Below are positions 1 to 39,871 of a stretch of 64,000 nt of DNA, piece after piece. A program made the translations under genes and the position numbers. Where the stretch lies: contig OY969474.1 in the NCBI GenBank assembly GCA_963700145.1, positions 4,644,916 through 4,708,915 on the forward strand, in the 5' to 3' direction. Position 1 is the first letter of the stretch. Every line of letters begins with the position of its first letter. The notes below the pieces were generated by a model. It did not search any database and was not told where the DNA came from. It was given only the letters and a program-made list of their open reading frames with translations. This stretch comes from an uncultured Acidobacteriota bacterium (lineage in GTDB: Bacteria > Acidobacteriota > Thermoanaerobaculia > Multivoradales > UBA5704).

Positions 1-1
1 G

Positions 2-157: not shown

Positions 158-180
158 AGTGGAAACTAAGGAGATCCGTC

Positions 181-5125: not shown

Positions 5126-5129
5126 AGGC

Positions 5130-5566: not shown

Positions 5567-5574
5567 CCTCCCGG

Positions 5575-6939: not shown

Positions 6940-6947
6940 CCTCCCGG

Positions 6948-7130: not shown

Positions 7131-7147
7131 CCGTTAGCCTTTGGCGC

Positions 7148-7390
7148 ATGGCACGGCCAGCGATTCCCCCGCCCGGATTCGACGAGCTCACGGCCGACGA
7201 GAAGCTCGACTACATCCAGGCGCTCTGGGACAGTGTCGCCGCTCACCCGGACGAAGTCCCGCTGCCGGAGTGGCACCGGGAGGTGATCAGGGAGCGGTTG
7301 GCAGCCCATCGCCGCGGAGAAGGGGCGTCGCGGCCCTGGATCGAGGTTCGCGAGGAGCTGCTGTCGCGCCTTCGCTCCGCCGCGCGGTGA
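7148..7390 (+). CDS. Putative addiction-module antitoxin component (TIGR02574-like); no cognate toxin evident
   Basis: ADEKLDYIQALWDSVAAHPDEVPLPEWHREVIRERLAAHRRGE resembles the 'putative addiction module component' family (EEKLELVEALWDSL...LPEWQKEEL...). Confidence 0.55.
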   Translation: MARPAIPPPGFDELTADEKLDYIQALWDSVAAHPDEVPLPEWHREVIRERLAAHRRGEGASRPWIEVREELLSRLRSAAR

Positions 7391-7424
7391 AGCGCCTAAA
7401 CCTCTCTGGCGACGATCGGCGACT

Positions 7425-7619
7425 TCAATCCTCGAGGCCCTTGTAGAGCTCCGATTCGTCTCCCAGCTTGTTGTTTGTCGACTCGAAGAGCCGCGTGGTC
7501 GGCGGGCGGCGATCGCCGTAGAACCGCGAAGCCACCAGGCGAAGGCCCTGGCGAATCAGCTCGGAAGCGGAGTGGTAGGCCGCTCGGGCACGCTTCAAGG
7601 CCTTCACGTTCCTCTTCAC
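7425..7619 (-). CDS. Small hypothetical protein translationally coupled to the upstream nuclease-like gene
   Basis: Its GTG start overlaps the stop of the 7616..8719 gene (GTGA). No recognisable domain. Confidence 0.3.
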   Translation of the reverse strand: MKRNVKALKRARAAYHSASELIRQGLRLVASRFYGDRRPPTTRLFESTNNKLGDESELYKGLED

Positions 7620-8719: not shown

Positions 8720-8787
8720 GTACGTTTACGCTCCCGCCTAGGTCAACCGCTCCTTGCGAGCATCTTATCCCCTGCCGGACTTCTGGC

Positions 8788-9954
8788 CTACGCTGGCTTG
8801 AGAAACCGAGCCCCCAAGCCACCGAAAACCACTCCGAAGCCGAGGAGCACCGCGGCCGGCAGGACAACCGCTTCGATCCCCCGCCCGAAGCTGATCAGGG
8901 CGTGGAAGGCGTCCATGGCCCAGGCGGTGGGGAAGACGTGGGCGGCGCGCCAGAGCCAGCGGGGCATGAGCTCGCTCGGCCACCAGCAGCCGCCGAGGGC
9001 GGCCATCACCATGCTGGCGATCCAGCCGACGGCGGAGGCCTGCTCCGGGGTGCGGAAGACGGCGCCGCAGAAGGTGGCGAGGCCGGCGACGCAGAAGGCG
9101 TAGGCGGCGAGGAGGAGGGCGAGGCCGCCGGGCGACCGCCCGAAGTCCAGGCCGAAGAGGAAGCGGCCGGCGGCGAGGAGCACGGCGACCTGGAGCGCCG
9201 CCAGGATCAGCCTCCCGGCGAGCTTCCCGAGGACGAGCGCCGGGCGCGAGAGCGGCAGGCTCACCTGCCGCCGCAGCATCCCCTCGCGCCGCTCGATCGT
9301 CAGGAAGACGCCGCCGTAGATGACGGTCATCATGAGGACCATCATCGTCAGGATGCCGGGGACGCTCTGCGCCATGCCGGCGGGGACCGGCCGGCCGTGC
9401 CCCGCCGTCGAGACGGCGACCGAGACCAACCGCGGCCGCGCCGCCAGGCGGGCCAGCTCCGCCTTGGCGGCGGCGGGGGTCGCCTGCGGCGGGAGCTTGC
9501 CCGCCGCGTTCATCTCGACCAGCAGGCCCAAGGTGCGGGTAACGGCGCGCATCAGGTTGACGTCGGCGGCACGCGAGAAGTCGCGATCGGCCTTCTCGTC
9601 GCGCTCGATGCGCAGCGTCTGCGGCTCGCCGGCGAGGACCTTGGCGGTGAAACCCGCGGGGATCGTGAGGGTGCGGACCTTCTCCTCGGCCGCCGCCGGC
9701 GCGGCGGGGGCGACCTCGCGCAGCGCGACGCTCTCGTCGGCGAGCTGCGCAACGAGAGCGCGGGCCAGGAAGCCGCCGTCGCGGTCCACGACGGTCAGGG
9801 TGACCTTCGGCGGCCCTGCATCGCCGCCGCCGCCGCCGACCTGGCCGAAGAACCACATCAGCGCCACCGGAAAGACGAGCATCCAGAGGAACGACGCCCG
9901 CTCCCGCATCGTCAGCCGGAGGTCGTTGAGCGCTAGGCGGAGAACGTTCCTCAC
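8788..9954 (-). CDS. ABC-2 type transporter permease
   Basis: Polytopic membrane protein with ABC-2 family architecture. A 4-bp overlap with the upstream permease gene suggests an operon. Confidence 0.75.
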   Translation of the reverse strand: MRNVLRLALNDLRLTMRERASFLWMLVFPVALMWFFGQVGGGGGDAGPPKVTLTVVDRDGGFLARALVAQLADESVALREVAPAAPAAAEEKVRTLTIPAGFTAKVLAGEPQTLRIERDEKADRDFSRAADVNLMRAVTRTLGLLVEMNAAGKLPPQATPAAAKAELARLAARPRLVSVAVSTAGHGRPVPAGMAQSVPGILTMMVLMMTVIYGGVFLTIERREGMLRRQVSLPLSRPALVLGKLAGRLILAALQVAVLLAAGRFLFGLDFGRSPGGLALLLAAYAFCVAGLATFCGAVFRTPEQASAVGWIASMVMAALGGCWWPSELMPRWLWRAAHVFPTAWAMDAFHALISFGRGIEAVVLPAAVLLGFGVVFGGLGARFLKPA

Positions 9955-11213
9955 GCCAACGCCCCGCGCCGCGCCGCGCGGTGGAGCAGGAAGCCGCCGA
10001 GCGCCAGGAGGGCGGCGCCGAGGCCGGCGAGGACCGCGATGTTGGGGAGGACGTCGCGCAGGGTGCCCGCCGACTCGATGAGCGTCCGGTACCCGGTCGT
10101 CCCCCAGTAGAAGGGCGACACCGGCGACACGGCGCGCACCGCCCGCGGCAGCCCCTCGAGGTTGACGAAGCTGCCGCCCGCCATCGCCAGGACGAGGTAG
10201 AGGATCGAGCCGATGGTGGCGCCGCGGCGCTCGTTGAGCGCCAGCCCGTAGATCGTCGCCGAGGTGCCGGTCACCGCCAGGACGAGCGCCAGGGAGAGCA
10301 GGAGGAAGCCCGCCGGGTCCACCCCCCGCCGCAGCACCACCGCCCCGACGGCCGCGAGCACGCCGAGCGCGATGAGCGCGAGGACCGCCGTGTAGAGCGC
10401 CTTGCCGAGCACCAGCGTGCCGCCGCCGATCGGCCCCGCGAGCTGCCGCCGCAGCGTGCCCGCCGTCGACTCGGCGATGATGTCGCGCATCGCCAGGTCG
10501 CCGACCAGGAAGAGCGCGTAGACCGAGATCCCGGGCAGGATGACGAGGAAGATCAGCGAGACCTCGGAGCCGGAGTCCTCGCCCGCCGGCTGCGGCTGGA
10601 GCGACGCGGTGTCGAAGGCGATGACCGGCGGCGAGAGGACGGCCGCGGCGCCCTCGAAGGCGCGGCGCACGGCGAGCGCGACGGCGACCGTCGTCTCCTC
10701 CGTGGGCGGCTCCGCGCCGGGCCGCGCCGAGGAGGCGATCCGCTCGAGCGGCCCGCGCAGGACGCGCGAGCCGGCGTCGAGGACGTCGGCCAGCACGCGC
10801 GCGAGCTGCTCGGCGATCTCCGGTAGGATCCCCTGTGCCGGGTTGCGGACCACGGCGAGTTGCACCGGTTTGCCGTCGAGGAGGTTTTGGGTGAAACCCT
10901 TCGGGATGCGGAGGAGGGCCGAGGCCTCGCCCTTCTCCATCCGCGCGGCGCCCTCGGTCCCCACGACCTCGACCTCGACCAGCTCGGCCAGCCGCTCCGA
11001 CTGCAGGGCGGAGAGCAGGGCGTCCGCCGCGATGCCGCCGTCGCGGTCCTCGACCAGCAGATGGGCTTGCGGCGTGCGGTCGCCCCGCGCGCCGAAGGAG
11101 AGGGCGATCAGGAACGCGAAGACCACCGGGAAGCTGAGCACGATGAGCAGCCCGAGCGGCGACCGGGCCTTGCGCCGCAGGTCCTTCCCGACCAGCAGCA
11201 GGAGGGTGCGCAT
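9951..11213 (-). CDS. ABC-2 type transporter permease (second subunit)
   Basis: Real start MRTLLLLVGKDLRRK overlaps the ATPase stop (TGATG). The track ORF 9951..14207 is an overextended frame. Hydrophobic C-terminal six-helix region. Confidence 0.75.
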   Translation of the reverse strand: MRTLLLLVGKDLRRKARSPLGLLIVLSFPVVFAFLIALSFGARGDRTPQAHLLVEDRDGGIAADALLSALQSERLAELVEVEVVGTEGAARMEKGEASALLRIPKGFTQNLLDGKPVQLAVVRNPAQGILPEIAEQLARVLADVLDAGSRVLRGPLERIASSARPGAEPPTEETTVAVALAVRRAFEGAAAVLSPPVIAFDTASLQPQPAGEDSGSEVSLIFLVILPGISVYALFLVGDLAMRDIIAESTAGTLRRQLAGPIGGGTLVLGKALYTAVLALIALGVLAAVGAVVLRRGVDPAGFLLLSLALVLAVTGTSATIYGLALNERRGATIGSILYLVLAMAGGSFVNLEGLPRAVRAVSPVSPFYWGTTGYRTLIESAGTLRDVLPNIAVLAGLGAALLALGGFLLHRAARRGALA

Positions 11214-23599: not shown

Positions 23600-24670
23600 A
23601 TGAGCGAGCTGCGCGCGCTGCTGGCCGGGACCGGCGTCGCCGTGCCGCCGCGGCAGGTGGACAACCACATGCTGGCGCGGATCCTCGACACCAACGACGC
23701 GTGGATCCGCGAGCGCAGCGGCGTCGTCACCCGCCACTACGTCGAGCCCGGCATCGCCTCCTCGGACCTGGGGACGGAGGCGGCGCGCGCCGCCCTCGCC
23801 GACGCCGGGGTCGCGCCGGAGGAGCTCGACTACATCGTCTGCGCCACCGCGACCCCCGACCACTACCTGCCGGGGATCGGCACGATGGTGCAGCAGAAGC
23901 TCGGGATCGGCGCCGTGCCGTCGCTCGACATCCGCCAGCAGTGCGCCGGTTTCGCCTACGGCCTGCAGGTGGTGGACGCCCTGGTGCGCAGCGGCATCGC
24001 GAAGACCGTGCTCCTCGTCGGGGTGGACATCCACACCTCGCTCATGCCCTTCTCCAAGCGCACCTGGGAGGTGCTCTACGACCCCGCCGCCGGGCCGCTC
24101 GAGGAGGCGGAGCGCGAGTGGAACACCCGCTACCGCTACATCGTGGTGCTCTTCGGCGACGCCGCCGGCGCGATGGTCTTCCGCGCCGGGCGCGAGGACG
24201 GGCGCGGCATCCTGCGCTCCGCCCTCTGGGGCGACGGCAACCACAAGGAGATCCTCTACACCCCCGGCGGCGGCTCGGTCTTCCGCCCCTGGGTGGACCA
24301 CGAGCAGATCGCGCGCGGCGACCTGGTGCCGGTGATGGACGGCCGGCAGGTCTTCCGCCTGGCGGTGACGCGCATGCCCGAGGCGGTGCGCCAGCTCCTG
24401 GCGCAGGAGGGGGCGGCGGTCGAGGACCTCGACCTGGTGGTGATGCACCAGGCCAACCTGCGGATCAACGAAGCGGCGCAGAAGGCGCTCGGTCTGCCCG
24501 ACGAGAAGGTCTGGAACAACATCCAGCGCTACGGCAACACCACCTCCGCCACCATCCCCCTCGCCTTCCACGAGGCGCGCCAGGCCGGCAAGGCCCCGGA
24601 AGGCGCCCTCGTCGCCTTCGCCGCCCTGGGCGCCGGCCTCCACTGGGGGGCGGTGCTGATGCGGGCGTAG
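23600..24670 (+). CDS. fabH: 3-oxoacyl-ACP synthase III (FabH-like KAS III)
   Basis: Active-site Cys region DIRQQCAGFAYGL, HQANLRI, and YGNTTSATIPLA motifs. Confidence 0.85.
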   Translation: MSELRALLAGTGVAVPPRQVDNHMLARILDTNDAWIRERSGVVTRHYVEPGIASSDLGTEAARAALADAGVAPEELDYIVCATATPDHYLPGIGTMVQQKLGIGAVPSLDIRQQCAGFAYGLQVVDALVRSGIAKTVLLVGVDIHTSLMPFSKRTWEVLYDPAAGPLEEAEREWNTRYRYIVVLFGDAAGAMVFRAGREDGRGILRSALWGDGNHKEILYTPGGGSVFRPWVDHEQIARGDLVPVMDGRQVFRLAVTRMPEAVRQLLAQEGAAVEDLDLVVMHQANLRINEAAQKALGLPDEKVWNNIQRYGNTTSATIPLAFHEARQAGKAPEGALVAFAALGAGLHWGAVLMRA

Positions 24671-24744
24671 CTCAGCGCCCGGCTACTCGACGATGCCGGC
24701 CCGCAGGGTGCCGCCGTCCAGGTGGCCGGCTCGACGTCCTCGGC

Positions 24745-24990
24745 GGAGTACGAAAAGCCGGTATCAGAGCTTGATACCTCGGTATCGAGCCCTGATACCT
24801 CCGTATCAGCCGCCGCTACCCAGGTATCAGGCGCCGCTACCTAGGTATCAGGCGCTGCGACCTAGGTATCGGGCGCCGATACCTCCGTATCAGGCGCCGC
24901 TCCCCCTGTGTCGAGCGCTGATACTCAGGTATCACGGGCCGATACCCCCGTATGGAGCGCTCATACCTCCGTATCGACGCTCCCGACCTC
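24745..24990. repeat. Tandem array of about 11 units with a period of about 21 bp (consensus GGTATCAGGCGCCGCTACCTA)
   Basis: Direct visual periodicity. Each unit carries GTATC/GATAC half-sites. The overlapping ORF gives a heptad-like PRYQAPL repeat and is not called as coding. Confidence 0.8.
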
Positions 24991-25275
24991 TTCCTCCACC
25001 TACGTCCCCCGACTCGCGGAACACCAGCCGCTGGGGTTGCCGGGGCTGCCACCATCCCCCTCGCCTTCCACGAGGCGCGCCAGGCCGGCAAGGCGCCGGA
25101 AGGCGCCCTCGTCGCCTTCGCCGCCTTGGGCGCCAGGCGGATCTTCTTGAGCGACTCGGTGCTGTGCCCGGCGAAGAACGGCCCGAGCTGCGGGTCGGCC
25201 GCCATCCGCCCGATGAAGTCGTCGGTCACGGCGGCGAACGCGTACAATCGGGAAACGGGATCGTGAGGTGACGCC

Positions 25276-25476
25276 GTGATGAAGGGGATCGAAGAAGCAG
25301 TCGCCGCGCTCAGGCGCGACCCCGATCAGCCGGTGACGGCCGAGATCGACGGCCTGGTCATCGAGCTGCGGCACAAAGCCGACTCGACGCGGAGAGCTCG
25401 GCGGACGGCCGATGATGTCTTCAGGGAAGTGGGGAGCTGGGAAGGGGAGACACCAACACGGTCATCGCCCGCCTGA
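25276..25476 (+). CDS. Type II antitoxin (VapB-like) upstream of a PIN-domain toxin
   Basis: Small ORF immediately 5' of vapC. C-terminal ...FREVGSWEGE resembles VapB C-termini. No strong family call. Confidence 0.4.
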   Translation: MMKGIEEAVAALRRDPDQPVTAEIDGLVIELRHKADSTRRARRTADDVFREVGSWEGETPTRSSPA

Positions 25477-25844
25477 ACGGCAATCTCGCCGTCTCGGAGC
25501 GGCTTGCAGCGCTCAAACCGGAGGAAGTCGTCCTCTGCGCGCCGGTACTGGCCGAGCTCCACTTCGGCGCGAGCCTCTCGGCGCGCAGAGAGCAGAACCT
25601 CGGACGGCTGGAGCGATTGGCGGAGAGCATGCGCTTCCAGTCGTTCGATGCCGGGGCGGCTCGCCGCTTTGGAGACTTGAAAGCCTCGCTCCGTCGCCGC
25701 GGGGTCACCAAATCCGACTTCGATCTGGCCATCGCCGCCATCGCGCTCGAACTCGGCGCGATCCTCGTTTCTGAAGACGGCGCGTTCCACGGCGGCTCAA
25801 TAGCGGGGCTCCAGGCGGAGAACTGGCTGCTGAACGCCAGATAA
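25437..25844 (+). CDS. vapC: PIN-domain toxin VapC (start uncertain)
   Basis: The in-frame upstream extension gives GDTNTVIARL (the DTN motif of the PIN N-terminus) and FDLAIAAIALELGAILVSEDGAF (the conserved D of the PIN C-terminus). There is no ATG or GTG before the DTN motif; the first listed Met (TTG 25617) would truncate the PIN domain. It overlaps the vapB frame. Confidence 0.55.
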   Translation: MGRGDTNTVIARLNGNLAVSERLAALKPEEVVLCAPVLAELHFGASLSARREQNLGRLERLAESMRFQSFDAGAARRFGDLKASLRRRGVTKSDFDLAIAAIALELGAILVSEDGAFHGGSIAGLQAENWLLNAR

Positions 25845-25891
25845 GACGCTCCGCCGTCTAAGGGACCGGCGCTTCAGCGGCGTGCCCGCGC

Positions 25892-26335
25892 CTACTGCTC
25901 GACGATGTCGGCGCGCAGGGTGCCGACGGCGGCGAAGAGCTCCTCGCGCTCCTTCTGCCCGACCTTGAACTTGTCGAGCGTCGCCGTCAGGTGCTTGACC
26001 GCGGTGTCCCAGTGGGCCGCCGAGATCTTCATCCCCGCGTGCGACGCCTTCATGCTCCGCCCCGTGTAGTAGCAGGGGCCGCCGCTCATCTCGCAGAGCT
26101 GCTCGACGACGAGCTGCCGGATCTTCTTGAGCGACTCGGTGCTGTGCCCAGCGAAGAACGGCCCGAGCTGCGGGTCCGCCGCCATCCGTCCGATGAAGTC
26201 GTCGGTCACGGCGGCGATGGCGTCGTAGCCGCCCAGGCGCTTGTAGAGCGACGCGTCGTCAGCCGCGGCGAGCGGCGCCGCGAGGGCGGCCGAGAGCAGC
26301 AATGCGGCGGCGATGAGAGCCTTGGTTCGGATCAT
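25892..26335 (-). CDS. Truncated (2/2) hemoglobin, group I, with signal peptide
   Basis: YKRLGGYDAIAAVTDDFIGRMAADPQLGPFF and the HAGMKIS heme-pocket region match trHbN. N-terminal signal peptide. Confidence 0.8.
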   Translation of the reverse strand: MIRTKALIAAALLLSAALAAPLAAADDASLYKRLGGYDAIAAVTDDFIGRMAADPQLGPFFAGHSTESLKKIRQLVVEQLCEMSGGPCYYTGRSMKASHAGMKISAAHWDTAVKHLTATLDKFKVGQKEREELFAAVGTLRADIVEQ

Positions 26336-26431
26336 GGTTCCCTCCCGAGAGAGCTCGACTGCAGTCCATTGGCTTCTACGCGCGGGCCGAGCGCCCGGAT
26401 GAGTCCGAGTAGCGGCCGAACCGACTCCGAA

Positions 26432-26705
26432 TCAGTCGACGTTGAACACCGGACGTTCGCAGGTTGGACCGGCCTGTAGCTCGCTCTGCGTGTATCGGCT
26501 GTCTTGGTACAGCCGAATGGGATAGCAGCCTGTACCGAGACCGAACTCGACGACGTAGTCGCCTGGAAGCAGGCTGGTCCGAAGAACGCCGCGTTCCTTC
26601 TGGACGAGGCTCCCTCCATCGTCACCAAGCCAGATGTCCACCGATTTGGAGTTGCCGGTGATCTCGAGCTCGAGGTACGTGCGGCTCTCGTAGACGTGGC
26701 TCATT
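26432..26705 (-). CDS. Small hypothetical protein (island gene 4)
   Basis: ORF beginning MSHVYESRTYLELEITG. Low-G+C island. No domain recognised. Confidence 0.35.
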
Positions 26706-26875
26706 GTGCCGACCGTAGGAGAGAGTGAACTATCTAAGCGTGGGCATGGTAGCACCGTGACCGCGACCCTCTGCCTCCGACGCGATGCTGGCCTGTCACT
26801 GCCGGCTCCGTGCCGCCCTAACGTTCACGCTTCACCGGCGGATGGCAACGCCAGCCGTCCGGCGGAAGCTGGGGG

Positions 26876-27778
26876 TTAAACGGCACCGCTTCTGGCCTCG
26901 AGTTCACGTCTCACCTCGCTACGGAACACCGGCAACCATTCAGTAATGAGCTGTTGGAAAGCCTCGTCTAGCTGGGGCTCTCGCTCAGGAACTATCGAGT
27001 TCATCCGAATCGCCAGTGCCAAACCTGCTATGTTGGCTGCCGCCTTGGCGACTGGTTCTGATGCGAAGAGGTGAATCTCCTGGTTGAGCTCACTCACGCG
27101 CCGACCCTGCAGCTGGAGATCTTCTTCTACGCGAGGGAGCATGAGCTGAGCAGCCGGTCCACCCTGCTTCATAACGATGACGCGATTCTTCGCTGCTTGG
27201 TGGGCTCTTAGAGCGGCATTGACAAAGTCGGCATAGACCTTCTGGTGGGTCACTCCGGCCATATCGATCGAAGGACTGACTGGAGCTAACGGCGTAGTGC
27301 CTAAAGGCGGTGCTTGAGCGAGAACTCCGCGAAGTGCGCTAAGAAGTTGCCGATAGTTCTCCTCCGAGTATGGATCACCGCGCAGGTCAAAGTAGACCTT
27401 TCCTCGAAGAAATGAGGGAGCCGCCTCTCTCCAGTCACCTGACCGAAGTAGAGGAACGAACTTCCTGTCGTTGCGGTCAGTCATCACTTCGGCCGTAATG
27501 ATATGCCCTTCGTAACCGACGCCACCGATGCGTCGATCTGACTTCTCTTGGTACTTAGGGGTGCAGATCATGAGGACGAAGTCGCTGTCTCGGATGGCAG
27601 TTTCAATAAACTGAGGCAGTTGATCACCGGGAGCAACCTTCCACTCGTCCAAGATCAGGTCGATGCCGTCACTGCGGAGACGGGCACCAAGTCTCTTGAC
27701 CCAATCCTTGTGCTCCTCGCTATCCCACGAGTACGAGATGAACGCCGTGGGTATCTGTTTAAGAAGTTCGCTTGTCAC
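26876..27778 (-). CDS. TIR-domain protein (N-terminal TIR plus a C-terminal domain of about 160 aa with unknown function)
   Basis: AFISYSWDSEEHKDWVKRLGARLRSDGIDLILDEWKVAPGDQLPQFIETAIRDSDFVLMICTPKYQEKS matches the bacterial TIR pattern (FISYS, D, L, G, D, PG, I, AI, S, S, Y). G+C visibly low. Confidence 0.65.
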   Translation of the reverse strand: MTSELLKQIPTAFISYSWDSEEHKDWVKRLGARLRSDGIDLILDEWKVAPGDQLPQFIETAIRDSDFVLMICTPKYQEKSDRRIGGVGYEGHIITAEVMTDRNDRKFVPLLRSGDWREAAPSFLRGKVYFDLRGDPYSEENYRQLLSALRGVLAQAPPLGTTPLAPVSPSIDMAGVTHQKVYADFVNAALRAHQAAKNRVIVMKQGGPAAQLMLPRVEEDLQLQGRRVSELNQEIHLFASEPVAKAAANIAGLALAIRMNSIVPEREPQLDEAFQQLITEWLPVFRSEVRRELEARSGAV

Positions 27779-27861
27779 GGTCGATTCTTGTGCCGTTTAA
27801 CGGCGTATGAGTTCCGCTGCAACGAGGTTAGGTGACCCGCCGCGACTGTCGAGCAAAGGGT

Positions 27862-28347
27862 TCAGGTCGTTCGCTGGTAGTCGTCCAGCAGCTGAGTGAT
27901 GTCTCGCTGTGTGACGGTGAGATGATGAAGCAGGGAGTCGACTGGCGAAGGGCTGACGTGACTGCTTGAGCCAGTGGCGATGTGTGTGTGCAGGTAGTCG
28001 AGTTTAGCGTTGATGTGGTCAAGCTGGTAGCGCTGCCAGTCGAACCTGTCGAACAGACCCTCGTCGGCGAACAGTTCGCGACCGCTAAGCAGGACTTGTG
28101 CTGGGGTTGTCGTATCTAGGCGGAAGTTTGGAATCACAACCGGGGAACGCTGCAGGTAGTCGAGGCATTGCGCAATGCGATCGAGATTGAAGCGAAACGC
28201 CTTGAGGAGATTGGCGCGGAGCTGATGAGCTCGCGCTACGCGCTCCCGTTTCCATTGCTGCCGTGCCCAGAGCACGCCGAACACTGTTCCAGCGAAGGCG
28301 CTTAGGAAGGCGAAGAGGAGATTCCAGAGCAGCTGTTCCGTTGTCAT
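27862..28347 (-). CDS. Single-pass membrane protein (island gene 2)
   Basis: MTTEQLLWNLLFAFLSAFAGTVFGVLWARQQW is an N-terminal transmembrane helix, followed by a helical soluble region. An alternative start at 28407 is possible. Confidence 0.45.
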   Translation of the reverse strand: MTTEQLLWNLLFAFLSAFAGTVFGVLWARQQWKRERVARAHQLRANLLKAFRFNLDRIAQCLDYLQRSPVVIPNFRLDTTTPAQVLLSGRELFADEGLFDRFDWQRYQLDHINAKLDYLHTHIATGSSSHVSPSPVDSLLHHLTVTQRDITQLLDDYQRTT

Positions 28348-28431
28348 GAATGCTATCCGGGTCCTAACGCTACTGGGCTTCAGCGACGGCGGAGCCGCTC
28401 GCTGCAAGCCCTTGGTTAGGCTGCTGATTGA

Positions 28432-28935
28432 TCACCGAGCCTTTCCAAGCGTGCTTAACGCAACGATGGCTTCCCTAATGTTGGCGGCGACAATATTAGA
28501 TTGATCGAGGCGCCACCTGTTGTAGTGTGCACGAAGGACATCGACGAGCCTGGCTGCCTGCTGAATATCGCGCTGTGCTGGACCGAGATCGACCTCGTCA
28601 GGGATGCCTAGGCTCCTCATGAAGCCGATGACTCGCTCAAGATGAGCGACCAGTTGGCGGTGAGGACGTGTGAGTCGACCTTCTCGGAATTGCTTTGCCT
28701 TGTCCGTGTCCTCGAACCATGTTGGGTCCCACATCAAGGAGTCATTCGCAATCTTGGTCACATGAGCCACCACGGGCTCACCAATGAGCGAGTCGAATTC
28801 ACGATCATTGCGCTCCATGACCTCGCGATATGTCCGGACAATCTCCTGAAGGCCGGAGAGCGAAGTGAGGGACTGCATGTCCTGTGTGAGTACCAACGGG
28901 GATAGGAAGGCAGGTCGCGATGCATTATCTGTCAT
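28432..28935 (-). CDS. Hypothetical protein (island gene 1)
   Basis: 167-aa ORF in the low-G+C island. AT-rich putative promoter upstream (28940-29100). Confidence 0.4.
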   Translation of the reverse strand: MTDNASRPAFLSPLVLTQDMQSLTSLSGLQEIVRTYREVMERNDREFDSLIGEPVVAHVTKIANDSLMWDPTWFEDTDKAKQFREGRLTRPHRQLVAHLERVIGFMRSLGIPDEVDLGPAQRDIQQAARLVDVLRAHYNRWRLDQSNIVAANIREAIVALSTLGKAR

Positions 28936-29147
28936 GGCATTTCATCCTTGTTCTAGAATACTGAATCCTGCTCGCATGGTCAGCAGCCTAACCTCTGCTT
29001 ATACGGATTGGCCGGCTGTGGGTGGCGAGACGGGAGCCTCAGCCGCATCTCACGCCTGGTTATGAGTTAGGAGAGTGTAGCAGAGACTGCGTGCGAACAG
29101 GTGCGACGGACGTGTCGTCTATGCGGCGCTGGACGGGGTCAGAGTTT

Positions 29148-29190
29148 CGAGACCCCCGCCCAGATCCTTCGCTACGCTCAGGATGACGGC
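29148..29190. repeat. REP-like palindromic repeat family, half copy (CCCCGCCCAGATCCTTCGCTACGCTCAGGATGAC)
   Basis: The same family recurs at 30903, 49385, 56211 and 59672. Confidence 0.7.
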
Positions 29191-29221
29191 GCTGCGAGCT
29201 TCGGTCGGCTGGGCGCTACGT

Positions 29222-30889
29222 CTACGTCCCCGACTCGCGGAACACCAACCGCTGGTTCCCGGCGACGTTGGCGCGTTGCTGGACCTTCCCTGACGGCCAG
29301 CGCACGACCACCCGATCGGCCTTCGCGGCCCGCCCCAACCCGAAGACAGGCTCGACCTGCGACTGCGAGAGGTAGCTGCTGCCGGTGCGCACCAGCCAGC
29401 GCTGGGTGGCGCCGCCGGTGGTGACCTCGACGACCGTCCCCAGGCCGTCGCGGTTGCTCTTCGAGCCCTCGAGCCCGATCTTGAGCCAGCGGCCCTGCCC
29501 GCCGCCGGCGTTGGCGAAGACCTGGGCCGGGCCGCCGTTGTTGGTCAGCACCAGGTCGAGGTCGCCGTCGTTGTCGAGGTCGCCGTAGGCGGCGCCGCGG
29601 GCGACGCGCGGCTTGGCGAGGTCGCCGCCGGCGGTCGCCGTCACCTCTTCGTAGCGGCCGGCGCCGGCGTTGCGGAAGAGCTGCGTCGGCTGGCGGAACT
29701 TGACCTTGGTCTGCACGTTCTCGACCTCGGGGTCGAGGTGGCCGTTGCCGAGCAGGATGTCGAGCCAGCCGTCGAGGTCGTAGTCGAAGAAGAAGGCGGC
29801 GAAGGCGAGGGTCAGGAGGGTGCGGCGGCCGATCTGCGAGGCCGGCGCCACGTCGACGAAGAGCTGATTGCCCTCGTTGCGGTAGAGCGCCACCATCTCG
29901 TTGGCGAAGTTGCCGATCACCAGGCTGTGGCGGCCGCTGCGGTCGTAGTCGGCGGCGTCGATGCCCATGCCGCCGCGCGCCACGCCGGTCTCGGAGAAGG
30001 CCATGCCGGAGGCCACGCCCACCTCCTCGAACGTGCCGTTGCCGCGGTTGCGGTAGAGGAGGTTGGGCTGGGTGTCGTTGGCGACCGCGAGGTCGGGCCA
30101 GCCGTCCCCATCGAGGTCGAGCACCGCCACGCCGAGCGACTTGGCGGAGGGCTTGGAGATCCCCGCCTTCTTGGTCGCGTCCTCGAGCTTCAAGCCCCCC
30201 TTGTTGCGGTAGAAGCGCGGCGAGGCGCCGGGGTAGGACTCCGGCGTGCAGTAGGACTTGCTCTTGCCGTCGAGGGTGCAGAAGAGGTCGGTCTCCGGCG
30301 TCCAGGTGACGTAGCGGGTGGCGAGGACGTCGAGCCGCCCGTCCTTGTCGGCGTCGAGGAGAGCAACCGAGGCGCCGAACTCGTAGTCGCGCGACAGGCC
30401 GGCCGCCGCGGAGACGTCCGCGAACTTCCCGCCGTCGTTGCGCAGCAGGTAGTCCTGCCCGACGCAGGAGAGGTAGAGGTCGGCGTCGCCGTCGTTGTCG
30501 AGGTCGCCGGCGGCGCCGCCCAGGCAGTAGGCGGCGATGCCGAGACCGCTCTTCGCCGTCGCGTTGGCGAACTTGAGGCCCCCTTGGTTGGTGTAGAGCT
30601 CCTGCGTCGTCGCCTTCCCGGGCTTGCCCGGGAAGTTGCGGCCGTTGAGAAACAGCACGTCGAGCCGGTCGTCGCCGTTGGCGTCGAAGAGGACGACGCC
30701 CGGCCCCATCGTCTCCGGCAGCCACTTCTTGCCGAAGGCGCCGGTGTTGTGGGTGAACTTGATGCCGCTCGCGGCGGTGACGTCGGCGAATCGCGGGCCG
30801 GCGGGCCTCGCCGGCTGCCCCTGCCGAGCGAAGAGAGGCACGGCGAGCAAGAGACAGGTAACGAGGTACAACAAGGGTCGTCTGGTCAT
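29222..30889 (-). CDS. CRTAC1-family protein (FG-GAP/VCBS repeats plus ASPIC/UnbV C-terminal domain); secreted
   Basis: Signal peptide. Repeated DxDGDGxxDL motifs. C-terminal RWLKIGLEG...GLGTVVEV...SGSSYLSQSQVEPVFGLG matches ASPIC/UnbV. Confidence 0.8.
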   Translation of the reverse strand: MTRRPLLYLVTCLLLAVPLFARQGQPARPAGPRFADVTAASGIKFTHNTGAFGKKWLPETMGPGVVLFDANGDDRLDVLFLNGRNFPGKPGKATTQELYTNQGGLKFANATAKSGLGIAAYCLGGAAGDLDNDGDADLYLSCVGQDYLLRNDGGKFADVSAAAGLSRDYEFGASVALLDADKDGRLDVLATRYVTWTPETDLFCTLDGKSKSYCTPESYPGASPRFYRNKGGLKLEDATKKAGISKPSAKSLGVAVLDLDGDGWPDLAVANDTQPNLLYRNRGNGTFEEVGVASGMAFSETGVARGGMGIDAADYDRSGRHSLVIGNFANEMVALYRNEGNQLFVDVAPASQIGRRTLLTLAFAAFFFDYDLDGWLDILLGNGHLDPEVENVQTKVKFRQPTQLFRNAGAGRYEEVTATAGGDLAKPRVARGAAYGDLDNDGDLDLVLTNNGGPAQVFANAGGGQGRWLKIGLEGSKSNRDGLGTVVEVTTGGATQRWLVRTGSSYLSQSQVEPVFGLGRAAKADRVVVRWPSGKVQQRANVAGNQRLVFRESGT

Positions 30890-34028: not shown

Positions 34029-35102
34029 ATGCCCCCCGCCACGCCCGGACCGGTGGAGATCGCCGGCGCGCTCTCGCGGCGCGTCATCGGCCAGGAGACC
34101 GCCGTGCGCGAGCTGGCGGTGGCGCTGGCCAAGAAGCTCGCCGGGCTGCGCGTCGGCAACATCCTGCTCATCGGCTCGTCCGGCACCGGCAAGACGACGC
34201 TGATGCGCGCCGTCGAGGCCTACCTCGCCGCCGACCCGGCGCTCGCCGGGCGCTCGACGGTAGTGCGCATCCACGCCAACGTGCTGGGCGAGGAGGCGGG
34301 GCGCGGCCGGCCCGGCCAGGCGGTCCTGGCGCGTCTCCTCGAGCGGGCGCGCGAGCAGCTCGGCGCGGGCGCCGCGCCGGAGGCGATCCTCACTCGCGCC
34401 GCCTCGGGGATCGTCTTCGTCGACGAGGTGGACAAGATCCGCTCCCACGTCGGCGGCCAGGCCAACGTGCCCGGCATCCGCGCCCAGGAGGCGCTGCTGA
34501 CGCTGATCGAGAACGAAGCGGTGCAGCTCGACCTGCCGGCCTGGGCGGGGGGCGGCACCACGACGGTCGACTCGAGCGGCCTGGTCTTCGTCTGCGGCGG
34601 CGCCTTCGAGGGGCTCTACGACGCGGTCTACGACCGGGTGACCATCGGCCGCGACCGCGGCGCGCTGCAGCCGGTGACGGTGGTCGACGACGGCCGGGTG
34701 CGCGAGGAGACGACCTTCGACCTCCGCCACTGGCTGCGCAACGAGGACCTCTTCGAGTACGGCATGAGCCCGCAGTTCCTGTCGCGCTTCGACGCCGTGG
34801 TGCTGCTCGAGAACCTCACCCGCGACGAGCTGGTGCGGATCTTCCTCGAGGCCCCCGACTCCGCCTTCCACCAGACCCGCGCCTACTTCGAGAGCCGCGG
34901 CGTGCACCTGGCGCTCTCGCCCGCCGCCGTGCGCCGCATCGCCGCCGAGGCCGCCCGCCAGCCACGCCTCGGCGCCCGCGCCCTCAAGGAGGTCTTCCGC
35001 CGCGTGATCCGCGACTACGAGTACGACCCCGCCGGGACCGCCAACGGCGGCGTCCTGCCGATCGACCTGGCCGAGGTCGAGGCGGCGCTCGGCGCGGCCT
35101 AG
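34029..35102 (+). CDS. AAA+ ATPase of the ClpX/HslU-like family (standalone)
   Basis: VIGQETAVRELAVAL, Walker A GSSGTGKTT, Walker B IVFVDEVDKI, and the sensor region. Confidence 0.7.
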   Translation: MPPATPGPVEIAGALSRRVIGQETAVRELAVALAKKLAGLRVGNILLIGSSGTGKTTLMRAVEAYLAADPALAGRSTVVRIHANVLGEEAGRGRPGQAVLARLLERAREQLGAGAAPEAILTRAASGIVFVDEVDKIRSHVGGQANVPGIRAQEALLTLIENEAVQLDLPAWAGGGTTTVDSSGLVFVCGGAFEGLYDAVYDRVTIGRDRGALQPVTVVDDGRVREETTFDLRHWLRNEDLFEYGMSPQFLSRFDAVVLLENLTRDELVRIFLEAPDSAFHQTRAYFESRGVHLALSPAAVRRIAAEAARQPRLGARALKEVFRRVIRDYEYDPAGTANGGVLPIDLAEVEAALGAA

Positions 35103-36133
35103 TTGCCGGCGGCCTCGCGCCGCCGCCGCCAGGCGGCGGGGGAGGCGCCCACCAGCTTCTTGAAGGCGCGGCTGAACGCCGCCTCGGACTCGTAGCCGAC
35201 CTCGTGGGCCACGGCCGCGACCTTGGCGGCGCGGTCGGCGAGCCGCCGCGCGCCGAGCTGCAGGCGCCAGTGCGAGAGGTACTGCATCGGCGGCTGGCCG
35301 ACCAGCGCGGCGAAGCGCTCGGCCAGCGCTGTGCGCGAGACTCCTGCGTCCTTCGCCAGCCCGCCCAGGGTCCAAGGCTCCGCCGGGCGCGCGTGGAGCA
35401 GCGCCAGGGCCCGGCCGACGACCGGATCGCGCAGGCCGGCGAGCCAGCCGCGGCCGCCGGCCGGCAGATCGGCGAGGTACTGCCGCACGACCTCGACGAA
35501 CATCAGCTCGCCCAGGCGCTGGATCACGCACTCGCCGCCGGCGCGCGGCTCGCGCGACTCGCCGATCACCAGCTCGATCAGGGCGCTCAGCCGGTCGGCG
35601 GCGCCCGCACCGCGCCGCACGTGGAGCAGCCGCGGCAGCGCCGCGAGGACCGGGTTGAACGGGCGCGCGTCGCAGCCCAGGAAGCCGCAGACGACGCCGA
35701 TCCGCCCGTCGCCACCGCCCCCTTCCTCGACGACCAGGGGCAGCTCGCCGCAGAGCATGCAGCGGAAGAAGCTCAGGACCGCCTCGGGGCCGCTCTCGTC
35801 GCGCAGCTCCGGCGCGCTCGCCAGCTGGTAGGGGTCGCCGTGCGGGAAGACGACGACGTCGCCCGGCTCCAGCCGGACGGGCGGCTCGCCCGCCACCTCG
35901 CCCCAACAGCCCCCCTCGGTGACGATGTGGTACGAGATCAGGTGGTCGGCGCCCGGGAGCAGGACGGGCAGGACCGCCGCGCCGGCCGGCACCGCCGCCG
36001 TCCACGGCGTCGAGGCGTCGACGATGAAGAACAGCGCGCCGGTCAGGCGGACCGTGCGCAGCACCTCCGAGAGCACGTCCGCGCCGGACGCGGCGGCAAG
36101 CGAACCGGACGCTCGGTCATGGCCAGTCGCCAC
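35099..36133 (-). CDS. AraC family transcriptional regulator (cupin sensor plus HTH)
   Basis: C-terminal AraC-type HTH (LAKDAGVSRTALAERFAALVGQPPMQYLSHWRLQLGARRL...GYESEAAFSRAFKK). Confidence 0.85.
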   Translation of the reverse strand: MATGHDRASGSLAAASGADVLSEVLRTVRLTGALFFIVDASTPWTAAVPAGAAVLPVLLPGADHLISYHIVTEGGCWGEVAGEPPVRLEPGDVVVFPHGDPYQLASAPELRDESGPEAVLSFFRCMLCGELPLVVEEGGGGDGRIGVVCGFLGCDARPFNPVLAALPRLLHVRRGAGAADRLSALIELVIGESREPRAGGECVIQRLGELMFVEVVRQYLADLPAGGRGWLAGLRDPVVGRALALLHARPAEPWTLGGLAKDAGVSRTALAERFAALVGQPPMQYLSHWRLQLGARRLADRAAKVAAVAHEVGYESEAAFSRAFKKLVGASPAAWRRRREAAGN

Positions 36134-36157
36134 GGCACGATCCTACAGTCCGGCTCC

Positions 36158-37408
36158 ATGAAGACCTTCATTGCGCTCCCGCTCACGCTGCTCGCCGTGC
36201 ACGCGCCGGCGGCCGCCGCAGGCCCGCCTGTCGGCCGCGACGCCGCGGTCGTCACGGCCTGGAACGACCTGGCGAACGAGCTCGCCTTCGCCGAGGAGAG
36301 GGCACCGGTGTTCAAGCCGGTGCGCGCCCCCGCGCTGATGCACCTGGCGATGCACGACGCCCTCAACGCCGTGGAGCCGCGCTTTGCGCAGTACGCGCCG
36401 CTCGCCACCGACGCGGCGGCGGACCCGATCGCCGCGGCCGCGCAGGCGGCGCACGACGTCCTCGCCGCGCACTACCCGGCGGCGCGGCAGGACCTGGCGG
36501 CCGCGCTCGCCTCGTGGCTGGCGCGGGTCCCCGACGGCGAGGCCGAAGCGCGCGGCGTCGCGCTCGGAGGGCGCAGCGCCGCCGCCCTCCTCGGCCTGCG
36601 CCGCGACGACGGCTGGGACGTCGAGGGGACGTACGTCTTCGCCCGCGGGGCGGGTGCCTACCAGACGACGCCGTCCTGGAACGGCTTCATGCTCCAGCCC
36701 GGCTTCCGCTTCGCCAAGCCCCTGGCGCTCGCGCGGCCGGACGAGCTGCGGCCGCCGGCGCCGCCGCCGCTCGCGAGCGCCGAGTACGCGGCGGCCTACG
36801 CCGAGGTCAAGGAGCACGGGGCGCGCGCGAGCGCCGCGCGCACCGCCGACCAGTCCGGCTACGCGCGCTGGTGGATGGAGTTCTCCGAGACGGCGGTCAA
36901 CCGGCTGGTGCGGGAGCTCGCCGGGCGCCGCGGGTTGGACGCGTGGCAGGCCGCGCGCCTCTTCGCCCTGCTCAACACGGCGCTGCATGACGCCTACGTC
37001 GCCGTCTGGGACGCGAAGTACGAGTACAACCTCTGGCGGCCGTACACCGCGATCCGCGAAGCGGAGGCCGACGGCAACCCCGCCACGGCGCCCGACCCGG
37101 AGTGGGAGCCGCTGCTCGCCACGCCGCCCCACCCGGAGTACCCGTCGGCCCACGGCGCGGGCTGCGCCGCCACCTTCGCGGTGCTCGAGCACGTCCTCGG
37201 CGACGGCGTCGCCTTCACCATGGCGACGCGCACCGCGCCGCCCGAGATGCCAACCCGCTCCTTCCCCCGCTTCCGCGCCGCCGCCGCCGAGTGCGCCGAC
37301 TCGCGGGTGCGGCTCGGCTGGCACTTCCGCTTCGCCACCGACGCGGGCCTCACCCTCGGCCGCGCCGTCGCCGAGCGGGTCGTCCGCGGCGCCCTCGCGC
37401 CGCGCTAG
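36158..37408 (+). CDS. PAP2-superfamily vanadium-dependent haloperoxidase-like protein; secreted
   Basis: Signal peptide MKTFIALPLTLLAVHA. Motifs PEYPSAHG and SRVRLGWHF (PAP2/vanadium haloperoxidase active-site signatures). Confidence 0.65.
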   Translation: MKTFIALPLTLLAVHAPAAAAGPPVGRDAAVVTAWNDLANELAFAEERAPVFKPVRAPALMHLAMHDALNAVEPRFAQYAPLATDAAADPIAAAAQAAHDVLAAHYPAARQDLAAALASWLARVPDGEAEARGVALGGRSAAALLGLRRDDGWDVEGTYVFARGAGAYQTTPSWNGFMLQPGFRFAKPLALARPDELRPPAPPPLASAEYAAAYAEVKEHGARASAARTADQSGYARWWMEFSETAVNRLVRELAGRRGLDAWQAARLFALLNTALHDAYVAVWDAKYEYNLWRPYTAIREAEADGNPATAPDPEWEPLLATPPHPEYPSAHGAGCAATFAVLEHVLGDGVAFTMATRTAPPEMPTRSFPRFRAAAAECADSRVRLGWHFRFATDAGLTLGRAVAERVVRGALAPR

Positions 37409-37606
37409 CGCGGGCGGGCGCTACTTCCGCGCCTGCGGCCGTCGATGCGAGTAGCGGGTCGGCTGTCGCTAGCAGAGCATCATGCGAACGGGTCGCGCGG
37501 CTCTTGCTGCTTGAGCCGCGGGATCTCGCCGGACCACGCCCCCAGGCAGGCGCGGAACTCGGCGGGCCACTCGTCCAGAGGCTCGTGAATGATCGGGCGC
37601 CTCCTT

Positions 37607-37966
37607 TCACGCCAGCAGCATCGGCAGCGGCTTCAGCTCACGGCGGAAGGGGTCGAGGATCAGGCCGAAGCCTTCCAGGGTCGTCGCTCCCAGCAGCGGG
37701 CTGTCGCCCTCCTCGCCGAAGATCACCAGCGAGTCGCCGCGCTGGCCTTGGTACTCGAAGATGGCGCTGCCGATCTCCCGCTCGATCCTCTCGCCGTTGG
37801 CGAGGATGAAACTGCGGCGGGAGTGGGGCTCGATGCCGATCTTCTCGAGCTCGCTCCGCGGCACCAGGGAATAGACGGCTCCGGAATCGACCAGGAAGGT
37901 CTCTTCGATCGCGCGCGAAGGATCGGCGGGGTTGGCCACTCTCAGCTTGACGAACGTCAGGCCCAT
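37607..37966 (-). CDS. Retropepsin-like (clan AA) aspartic protease
   Basis: FLVDSGAVYSLVP (DSG active-site motif). Size about 119 aa. Confidence 0.7.
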   Translation of the reverse strand: MGLTFVKLRVANPADPSRAIEETFLVDSGAVYSLVPRSELEKIGIEPHSRRSFILANGERIEREIGSAIFEYQGQRGDSLVIFGEEGDSPLLGATTLEGFGLILDPFRRELKPLPMLLA

Positions 37967-38011
37967 CGGTCCCTCGCCTCCTGGGGATTCAGCACTCCGA
38001 CCGGAAGCGTA

Positions 38012-39097
38012 TCAGTGCCCGCGCTTCCGCGCCTTGCGGCCGCCCACGCGGGTGGCGGTCGCGGGGTCGTTGCGGTCGTCGCGCCAGGTGGGGTGGTTGA
38101 AGTGGATCACGAAGTCGCCGTTATACGAGGCGACGGCGCGGTCGAAGGTCAGCTTCCCGAGGCGGCGCCAGTTCTCGAAGGTGCGGCGCTGGAAGAGCGG
38201 CGTGCCGCGGACCGCGCCGTCGTCCGTCACTTCGATGTCGAAGGCGAGGGTGCGGCGCGGCGTCGGGTCGCCGCGGTCGTAGATCTGGGCCAGCACCTCG
38301 TCGCGAAAGTCCAGGCCGTCGCCGGCGATCCGCGGCTGGTCGGGGGCGACGAGGAGGCGCATGAAGGTGGGCGCCCGCGTCGGCTCGCCGGCGGGCTTGC
38401 CGAGCTCGGCGACGGCGTAGAGCTGGCGGTGCGCGGGCTCCCGGTCGGCCTTCATCAGGACCGCCCCCGTCACGAGGAAGACCGGCACCCCGGCGCCGCG
38501 CCGCCAGGCGCGAGTGTCAGGGGCGTTGCGCAGCTCCGCGTCGTTGATGAAGTCGGTGCGCTCGCCGCCGAAGTCCTCCTGGGTGATGAAGTTGGCGGTG
38601 CGCAGCGGCTCGGCGTGCTGCGGGTCGGTGGTGGGGAAGAGCTTGCCGACCAGCGCCAGCGACCGCGTGTGGCCGCGCCGGGTCTCGGTGCAGCAGGTGG
38701 AGTAGCGCCCCACCGCCAGCGCGCGGCTGCCCTGGCGGAAGTAGCCCGAGTAGCCGCTCTCCTCGGTGATCTCCCAGAGCCCGGTGAGGCAGACGCCGTT
38801 CGGGTGCAGCAGCCGGCGAAACCCCTTGCCGTCCGGCCCCGGGCGCAGGTCGGCGTTCGAATCGACGGTGCGCTCGCTGGCCCGCAGGAACGGATAGGGG
38901 CGCCCGGACGGCAGCACGCCGCGCAGGACGCGCGACAGGGTGACGTCGTAGACCGGCAGCGGCGGCTCGCCGGCGCCGCCCCACACTTTCTGATAGGGAT
39001 TGGCGAAGAGGGCCTCGCGCACGTCCGCGAAGCGCGATCCGGCGTAGGCGCGGTCCTCGTCACCGAGCCCTTGCGCCCCGAGGTCGTCCGGTTTCAT
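38012..39097 (-). CDS. Catalase-related heme protein (small catalase-like peroxidase family)
   Basis: FRRLLHPNGVCLTGLWEIT...AVGRYSTCC resembles the catalase core (R..HAKG.GA.G.FEVT...RFST). Confidence 0.45.
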   Translation of the reverse strand: MKPDDLGAQGLGDEDRAYAGSRFADVREALFANPYQKVWGGAGEPPLPVYDVTLSRVLRGVLPSGRPYPFLRASERTVDSNADLRPGPDGKGFRRLLHPNGVCLTGLWEITEESGYSGYFRQGSRALAVGRYSTCCTETRRGHTRSLALVGKLFPTTDPQHAEPLRTANFITQEDFGGERTDFINDAELRNAPDTRAWRRGAGVPVFLVTGAVLMKADREPAHRQLYAVAELGKPAGEPTRAPTFMRLLVAPDQPRIAGDGLDFRDEVLAQIYDRGDPTPRRTLAFDIEVTDDGAVRGTPLFQRRTFENWRRLGKLTFDRAVASYNGDFVIHFNHPTWRDDRNDPATATRVGGRKARKRGH

Positions 39098-39127
39098 CGG
39101 TCCACCCCCCGGCTCGAGTCTACGCCG

Positions 39128-39871
39128 TCAGACCCGTTGTCGGTCGCCGCGCCGCTGCCTGATCTCCCGGTAGCGCTTCCGCCGCTTGAAGGCGTTCCAG
39201 GCGTGGGGGGCCATGGAGAGGGCGATGAGGAGGACGGAGGCGGCGACGAGCTGGATCATGACCGCGGAGCGCTCGGGGCCGGCGGCGGCGGCGAGGGTGG
39301 CGGAGAAGTAGGTGAAGAAGAGGGTGGCGGGGAGGAGCCCCAGCGCGCTCGTCGCCAGGTAGAGACCGAACGGCACCCCGGCGAGCGCGGCGCCGTAGTT
39401 GACCACCGCGAACGGCAGCGGCATGAAGCGCACCCCGACGAGGCTCCAGAAGCCGCGGCGGGCGATCGCCCGCTCGACGCGCTTGAGGCGCCGCCCGAAG
39501 AGGTGCGCCACGAACTCCCGCCCCAGCACGCGCCCGAGCAGGTAGGTGACGGCGGCGGCCAGGACCGTCCCTAGGAAGCTCCACGCCCACCCCCAGAGGG
39601 TGCCGAAGACGACACCCCCGGCGATCATCATCGGCGCCGCCGGCACGCCGAGCGGGCAGAGCAGGACGTAGCTCGCCACCAGCGCCGCCGGCGCCCACCA
39701 GCTCTCTCGCAGCCGCTCGAAGGTGCGAAGGATCGCCTCGGCGGAGAGCTGGTCGGCGAGCGGCGTCCAGCGCAGGGCCGCGAAGCCGCCGCCGACGATG
39801 GCGATGAGGAACAGGAAACGGACCAGGAGGCGGCGCGGGAGGCGCGGCCGCTCGCTCGGCTCCGGCTTCAC
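39128..39871 (-). CDS. DedA/TVP38 family membrane protein
   Basis: Multi-pass membrane protein with the DedA-type G.VFGTLWGW..SFLG region. Confidence 0.7.
   Translation of the reverse strand: MKPEPSERPRLPRRLLVRFLFLIAIVGGGFAALRWTPLADQLSAEAILRTFERLRESWWAPAALVASYVLLCPLGVPAAPMMIAGGVVFGTLWGWAWSFLGTVLAAAVTYLLGRVLGREFVAHLFGRRLKRVERAIARRGFWSLVGVRFMPLPFAVVNYGAALAGVPFGLYLATSALGLLPATLFFTYFSATLAAAAGPERSAVMIQLVAASVLLIALSMAPHAWNAFKRRKRYREIRQRRGDRQRV

Follow-up and report, generated by a model that had tools for sequence, protein, structure and literature searches.

The window analyzed here is a 64,000-nucleotide stretch of contig OY969474.1 (positions 4,644,916 to 4,708,915 of the forward strand; GenBank assembly GCA_963700145.1) from an uncultured bacterium of the Acidobacteriota, and its subject is an island of four small genes at positions 26415 to 29072. 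The island has a G+C content of 57.3%, compared with 72.4% in the remainder of the window, and it is the lowest-G+C 2.66-kb stretch of the window; the next lowest stands at 0.64, with a mean of 0.718 and a standard deviation of 0.039. Windowed G+C was 0.54 to 0.61 across approximately 26400 to 29100 and 0.67 to 0.78 in the flanks. The four open reading frames (ORFs) are all on the minus strand, co-oriented and tightly spaced, and on the coding strand they run from gene A (28432 to 28935; 167 amino acids) through gene B (27862 to 28347; 161 amino acids from the ATG) and gene C (26876 to 27778; 300 amino acids) to gene D (26432 to 26704; 90 amino acids from the ATG). On one side the island is flanked by a hemoglobin gene (25892 to 26335), and on the other by an FG-GAP/UnbV_ASPIC gene (29222 to 30889), here called CRTAC1-like, directly downstream of which the four genes begin. 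Third-codon-position G+C is 0.59 to 0.75 in the island ORFs (0.61 in A and 0.75 in D) and 0.96 to 0.98 in the hemoglobin, CRTAC1-like, FabH, and TPR genes that flank the island, and the four island genes are therefore foreign. An initial inspection of the letters, referred to here as the sequence-only reading, had described low-G+C, foreign DNA with four co-oriented minus-strand genes, and on all of these counts the computed values and ORFs agree with it.

The same reading had placed an AT-rich promoter-like stretch at the edge of the island, and this was not borne out, as a consensus scan revealed neither a sigma-70-like promoter nor an intrinsic terminator. Rfam families at 24000 to 30000 gave noise only. 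A tRNA-linked island was also considered and was rejected on finding no tRNA gene in the 64-kb window. The sequence-only reading further described a repetitive extragenic palindrome at the border. A G+C-rich element does lie there, between the CRTAC1-like stop codon and the first site of the array described below, at about 29138 to 29221 (it contains GTCATCCTGAGCGTAGCGAAGGATCT, and no strand is assigned to it), but it is an extra element outside that site, one that the window has and that the contig of a sister strain lacks (L165; loci are designated by L numbers throughout).

Each island gene is followed by an imperfect palindrome that has an RYYYAAC box at one end and a GTTRRRY box at the other, decayed after gene B and weak after gene D. 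The consensus used for such attC-type sites was RYYYAAC, an imperfect hairpin (about 55 to 140 nucleotides), and GTTRRRY, with boxes that pair, read on the coding strand, which here is the minus strand for every site. The first site of the array, attC_0 (28986 to 29072; TCCTAAC ... GTTAGGC; 87 nucleotides), precedes gene A and shows good R-box pairing and a weak hairpin center. The site that follows gene A, attC_A (28362 to 28421; GCCTAAC ... GTTAGGA; 60 nucleotides), folds as single-stranded DNA into one hairpin of -19.4 kcal/mol (z = -3.6), and 0 of 200 shuffled sequences folded as well; two single-base bulges lie on its 5' arm, 7 nucleotides apart. The site after gene C, attC_C (26816 to 26881; GTTTAAC, overlapping the stop codon, ... 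GTTAGGG; 66 nucleotides), likewise folds into one hairpin (-14.5 to -19.4 kcal/mol; z = -1.6), and the two sites have in common single-base bulges on the 5' arm spaced 6 to 7 nucleotides apart. Bulges placed in this way are the architecture of attC sites. After gene B, attC_B (27795 to 27866) runs from CCTGAAC at the stop codon through ACCTAAC to GTTAAAC; it is decayed, has no stable fold (z = +0.43), and by eye resembles the attC site of L088 and L089 minus the central stem. At the distal end of the array, a weak candidate, attC_D (26415 to 26469; GTCCAAC ... GTTCGGC), overlaps the end of gene D. It was found with the box-plus-hairpin heuristic alone (-5.4 kcal/mol), host-level G+C resumes just past it, and its place as the last site of the array is uncertain. 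Three to five sites fall within 2.66 kb, where an array of this type calls for at least two within a few kb. Box pairs number only 17 per strand in the whole window, and three of the best short ones with a single hairpin are within 2.3 kb of the island.

In an integron, the mobile unit would be a cassette comprising a short ORF and its own attC site, recombined by the integron integrase at G|TT of the GTTRRRY box. Cassette boundaries of this kind were observed when the island was aligned with independent contigs, and this comparison carries more weight than the hairpin folds. The GTT of the GTTAAAC box (27795 to 27801) is the point at which the DNA homology of cassette C to L081, L164, L001, and L163 sets in, and in L161 and L162 a GTTRRRC box stands in the same column as that box in the window. 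Upstream of the C cassette these loci have unrelated DNA, which in L001, L163, and L164 terminates with a different attC-like site. Past the C homolog, L162 and L164 show an equivalent R'' box (G-Y-Y-TAAC), a hairpin, and a GTT box, and then diverge; L161 retains the R'' box and stem with no clear GTT box, and L081 ends inside the site. For cassette B, homology to L165 begins at 28371, 3 nucleotides ahead of the GTT and behind a different attC site, the cassette in L165 starting at GTTAGG. Cassette A recurs in L173 with 96.8% DNA identity, where its first box is the same GTTAGGC as in attC_0, although the attC site in front of it is another one; it lies there between other attC sites, with different neighboring genes and a different gene following it. 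In this junction test, homology edges were thus at the GTT or no more than 4 nucleotides from it for A (L173), B (L165), and C (L081, L164, L001, and L163), and breakpoints at or beside GTTRRRY boxes were seen in eleven independent contigs.

The sister strain represented by L165 allowed the array to be compared within one chromosomal setting, as its TPR and CRTAC1-like genes are 95 to 96% identical to those of the window. Apart from a 42-nucleotide loop indel, attC_0 is common to both up to GTTAGGC, and the sequences diverge after that box. In place of gene A, L165 has a 254-amino-acid gene and a second cassette (with an uncertain ORF call of 108 or 87 amino acids), each with its own attC site, and then gene B at 97.5% identity. 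Gene C is represented by a 227-nucleotide piece only, fused to the end of B with an 8-nucleotide overlap, and beyond it lies unrelated high-G+C DNA. Together with the boundaries of cassettes A, B, and C, the difference between L165 and the window makes up the pattern expected of cassette exchange in an integron array. Another strain-variable segment is found at 35092 to 39149, where approximately 4 kb of the window is replaced by approximately 0.5 kb in L165, with synteny at 94 to 96% identity on both sides.

The sequence-only reading had proposed that the four genes constitute one new operonic TIR-based defense system in which the membrane protein encoded by gene B is the effector or the sensor. 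The co-orientation and close spacing of the genes are what such a system would show; a 2.2-kb contig from a separate run of sequencing carries A, B, and C as well and encodes an identical C protein; and proteins of the TIR superfamily pair with effectors in Thoeris and other systems. However, when A, B, and D were compared by tblastn with 160 loci containing C homologs, no match was obtained. The closest C homologs on usable contigs (69 to 79% identity) have unrelated neighbors, namely toxin-antitoxin genes, an AbiEii-like gene, another TIR gene, or an HNH gene, and in at least 160 loci no conserved neighbor of C homologs was found. A and B are found separately elsewhere, in contexts that vary and have no TIR gene among the neighbors; one B homolog, in L172, is inside a run of 17 attC sites, and other B copies adjoin XRE-type helix-turn-helix genes or a DpnII/MboI-domain gene. 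L165 keeps B while having lost A and most of C, and within the island itself attC sites stand between the genes. Co-conservation of A to D was not observed beyond near-identical copies of this array, and a single operonic system in which the membrane protein is a partner was rejected on that ground and on account of the attC sites that separate the genes; we consider it extremely improbable. On the evidence of their genomic neighborhoods, A, B, C, and D are not a unit. Since the units are gained, lost, and exchanged singly, the four genes would be adjacent by cassette shuffling rather than as an operon.

A more limited association might hold for two of the genes, such that B and C became a fixed two-gene unit after the decay of attC_B and now move, and perhaps act, as a pair, joining a SEFIR protein with a membrane-anchored helical protein. 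In line with this, attC_B is truncated and unfolded, and B adjoins C or a remnant of C in the window, in the contig from run ERR12035939, and in L165. That adjacency, however, is confined to near-identical copies of this lineage, and the state of L165, with C cut to 227 nucleotides and B intact, argues against dependence. Outside the lineage, no other B homolog has a TIR neighbor and no other C homolog has a B neighbor. A fixed B-C unit is in our view improbable.

Elsewhere, C homologs adjoin true integron integrases or what is left of them. An IntI1 query that gave no integrase in the window recovered integrases in other loci, which were then confirmed by means of NCBIfam TIGR02249. L049 has an intact integrase (401 bits, against a cutoff of 265) and no attC-like site beside its SEFIR gene; L136 has a frameshifted integrase (264.5 bits) and three attC-like sites, with its SEFIR gene between two of them; and integrase remnants occur in L001, L030, L015, and L092. 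The B homolog mentioned above is on a 312-kb metagenome contig (L172, positions 1 to 10495) that has its 17 attC sites within 10.5 kb, after almost every small gene. These sites are near-identical (GCCTAACCATGC...TTCTCGTTAGGC; 102 to 120 nucleotides), the intervening genes almost all lack a Pfam domain, and L172 is a textbook chromosomal integron array. Among the loci that have the C-terminal domain of C, 14 of 19 show an attC-like site after the stop codon, as assessed by eye from sequences and folds. In the wider C family such a site follows the gene in 23 of 147 loci, compared with 48 of 740 control regions (Fisher P = 6.5e-4). A literature search joining SEFIR with integron yielded two reviews only.

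These relatives bear on another explanation of the foreign DNA, in which the island is a generic acquired one, the remnant of a phage, transposon, or integrative element, and the hairpins are terminators or host repeats rather than attC sites. Such an origin would suit a window in which the IntI1 query detected no integrase, that carries an IS256-family transposase and other low-G+C patches elsewhere, and in which short duplicated fragments near the island show illegitimate recombination. It does not account for the breaks in eleven independent contigs at or beside GTTRRRY boxes, nor for the textbook attC arrays in which relatives reside or the integron integrases that they adjoin, and no tRNA, phage, or transposase gene is present within the island. 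We regard a generic island as highly improbable and interpret the locus in terms of integron cassettes.

The gene C protein is the member of the array for which a function can be proposed. Its AlphaFold2 model (pLDDT, the predicted local distance difference test, 83.9) consists of a TIR-like alpha/beta domain at residues approximately 10 to 150 (27329 to 27751, minus strand), a disordered linker at residues 153 to 167, and a confident four-helix bundle at residues 173 to 298 (26885 to 27262, minus strand). The TIR fold that the sequence-only reading had assigned to the 300-amino-acid protein is thus upheld by the model (pLDDT 84) and by Foldseek and hmmsearch matches over the same residues, and the TIR-like peptide quoted in that reading is part of this protein. 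A Foldseek search of the PDB with the model placed 5y8e first (7.1e-07), with TIR domains behind it (3.0e-04); the identity of the domain to 5y8e is approximately 33%. When a profile of 44 full-length C homologs was searched against solved structures, 5y8e/5y8f, the SEFIR domain of Bacillus cereus, matched at 5.1e-33 over positions 12 to 126, the best classical TIR match being 1.8e-08, which corresponds to 118 bits for SEFIR and 37 bits for TIR. The PADLOC profile bSEFIR was matched at 1.5e-65 (220.6 bits), with residues 7 to 183 of the protein aligned to profile positions 36 to 203 of 412. In a Pfam hmmscan the scores were 1.1e-23 (84.5 bits) for TIR_2 and 2e-12 (48.1 bits; residues 11 to 124) for SEFIR. 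As a component of Thoeris, CBASS, pAgo, or retron systems the protein gave sub-threshold matches only; among ThsB-type profiles these were PADLOC ThsB (6.1e-04) and NCBIfam ThcB4 (1.4e-05; 24 bits against a cutoff of 220).

SEFIR has been described as a single-gene anti-phage system from Bacillus sp. NIO-1130 in which the substitution D40A abolishes defense (Millman et al., bioRxiv 10.1101/2022.05.11.491447), and the selection rule of that study was a SEFIR match stronger than the TIR match by HHsearch. SEFIR is also listed among the systems that deplete NAD+, via the N-terminal SEFIR domain (bioRxiv 10.1101/2024.02.11.579819). Among the 44 full-length homologs of the C protein, D44, E90, and E97 are invariant. 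D44, in the motif LDEW, aligns with the LDRW aspartate of 5y8e and is presumably the equivalent of D40 in the NIO-1130 protein. Homologs of C number 1278, approximately 46 of them full length and most of the rest alike in the N-terminal domain only; the C-terminal 135 amino acids recur in only 19 of 173 loci. In L001 and L163, the stretch of 93% DNA identity with C runs from the GTT box no farther than residue 141, where another C-terminal region takes over, which indicates modular exchange of the SEFIR domain.

No function is assigned to genes A, B, and D, and family scans of their products yielded nothing above noise. Gene A had no match in Pfam, NCBIfam, or PADLOC and only two homolog clusters among 5.8 billion proteins. 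The gene B protein has one N-terminal transmembrane helix followed by a four-helix bundle (AlphaFold2 pLDDT 90) and belongs to a family of 25 homologs. It had no domain match in Pfam or PADLOC, and a fold search against the PDB gave no significant match, returning generic four-helix bundles only (best E = 0.03). An alternative TTG start would extend the B protein to 181 amino acids, and that extension would enter an attC site. Gene D has no Pfam domain; it is a real family, since it has 139 representative homolog clusters, and its own 90%-identity cluster has 9 members, 1 of them from a Thermoanaerobaculia genome bin.

We conclude that the island is very likely an array of four integron cassettes without a nearby integrase, known as a cluster of attC sites lacking integron integrases (CALIN), on a high-G+C chromosome that is probably of the Thermoanaerobaculia, and that gene C is a bSEFIR-family cassette within it. 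Several observations weigh against this conclusion. No integron integrase was detected in the 64-kb window by tblastn, for which the query was an IntI1 sequence and the result was noise only (E = 9.4). The attC sites were called only with a box-plus-hairpin heuristic of our own and with comparative breakpoints. Clean hairpins were obtained at only two of the five sites, attC_B being truncated and attC_D weak. RNAalifold, run on a MAFFT alignment of 15 attC sites, gave no consensus structure; the lack of pairs is attributed to the alignment not being structural. Past the R'' box, the attC site of A in the window is not the same as in L173, which simple cassette mobility does not predict. As for the assignment of C, Pfam TIR_2 outscores Pfam SEFIR, and the bSEFIR profile is matched over positions 36 to 203 only, positions 204 to 412 being unmatched. 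Because of that unmatched portion and the rarity of its C-terminal half, C is a member of the bSEFIR family by its N-terminal domain only and has a variant architecture.

The comparison with known systems is consistent with this assessment. With integron arrays and CALINs, the island shares co-oriented short ORFs, RYYYAAC/GTTRRRY palindromes, junctions at GTT, content that varies between sister strains, foreign base composition, and a defense gene amid orphan cassettes. It differs from known CALINs in having four cassettes only, two of five sites decayed, and no integrase within 64 kb, and in residing in a high-G+C acidobacterial host rather than in Vibrio or Xanthomonas. With bSEFIR proteins, C has in common the N-terminal SEFIR domain with its FISYSW, LD-x-W, and R-x-GGVG-x-E motifs and its occurrence as a stand-alone gene in varied contexts. 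It differs in its length of 300 amino acids against a 412-position profile, in its C-terminal four-helix bundle, and in being carried on an integron cassette. With Thoeris, C shares a TIR-superfamily domain and the weak ThsB-type matches, whereas the SEFIR profile fits far better and no ThsA, SIR2, Macro, or other known effector is encoded among the four proteins. The sequence-only reading had correctly remarked that the layout is not that of Thoeris, given that A, B, and D include no ThsA-type effector. Its proposal of a defense function is plausible for the 300-amino-acid protein and is not supported for a four-gene system. It had also named, as findings that would count against it, genes never co-conserved elsewhere and an exact match to a known annotated system; we found the genes not to be co-conserved, and the one TIR protein matches the known bSEFIR profile.

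A working model for the array can be suggested. The integrase would act in trans, presumably from a gene at another place in the genome or from one present in the past, and the cassettes might be expressed by read-through from the CRTAC1-like gene or from internal promoters. By analogy with the tested Bacillus protein, C would most likely work alone, as an abortive-infection NADase. Its four-helix bundle may sense infection or control self-association or oligomerization, upon which the SEFIR domains would associate, hydrolyze NAD+, and abort phage replication. A bolder proposal has two parts: that the subfamily with a SEFIR domain and a four-helix bundle, most of whose members are borne on cassettes, could be a compact defense variant with a new trigger-sensing domain, and that one or more of A, B, and D could be an undescribed miniature anti-phage gene. 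Taken jointly, these two ideas are doubtful. In a weaker version, B and C, joined by the decayed attC site, may have begun to work together.

Other features of the window are recorded here as separate observations. Just past the FabH stop codon, at 24739 to 25011, there are approximately 12 tandem copies of a 21-nucleotide unit (GGTATCAGGCGCCGCTACCTA-like) with 60 to 77% identity between copies, which form a long imperfect palindrome. Three gene fragments follow end to end at 25000 to 25243: a copy of the last 44 nucleotides of the CRTAC1-like gene (29222 to 29265), an 87-nucleotide copy of the FabH 3' end (24548 to 24634; 98%), and a 106-nucleotide copy of an internal hemoglobin segment (26118 to 26223; 95%). 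Their order resembles that of nested tandem-duplication junctions and suggests repeated illegitimate recombination around the array. At 25276 to 25844 on the plus strand, across the native-looking hemoglobin gene from the array, is a pair of VapB-like (66 amino acids) and VapC-like genes with foreign codon usage (third-position G+C of 0.76 to 0.79); the VapC toxin gene is probably truncated or frameshifted, since the ORF covers only profile positions 65 to 129 of 130. Farther away, an IS256/Mutator-family transposase (5640 to 6845, minus strand; Pfam, 1e-86) adjoins a low-G+C patch of 0.60 to 0.64 at 7 to 9 kb. The same area has attC-like hairpins at 6847 to 6905 and 8554 to 8611 and a 367-amino-acid ORF (7616 to 8719, minus strand) with a weak PADLOC match to a type II restriction enzyme (1e-13). 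At 5000 to 5700 and 6900 to 7200, a repeated peptide-like periodicity (...NSSRTVRALFP...) occurs in several frames and points to a further DNA repeat, tandem or dispersed, close to the transposase.

Many Vibrio integron cassettes without an assigned function have turned out to be anti-phage. The bSEFIR system is already known, as are cassettes and CALINs with defense genes, and what is new here is limited to a cassette-borne SEFIR variant with another C-terminal domain, an acidobacterial host, and three orphan cassettes. Integron cassettes and CALINs have been reported to store compact anti-phage genes (bioRxiv 10.1101/2024.07.02.601686 and 10.1101/2024.07.02.601719). The locus illustrates that an apparent new multigene defense operon can arise from cassette shuffling. 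As integron arrays produce both co-orientation and tight spacing, discovery pipelines that are based on operons should screen for attC sites first. In practical terms, C, and perhaps also A, B, and D, are small cassette genes that cost little to synthesize and to test against phages. For the family, L001 and L163 provide an instance of modular exchange of the SEFIR domain, and for the organism, a soil member of the Acidobacteriota, the array adds a data point for integron cassettes as stores of defense genes beyond Vibrio and clinical integrons.

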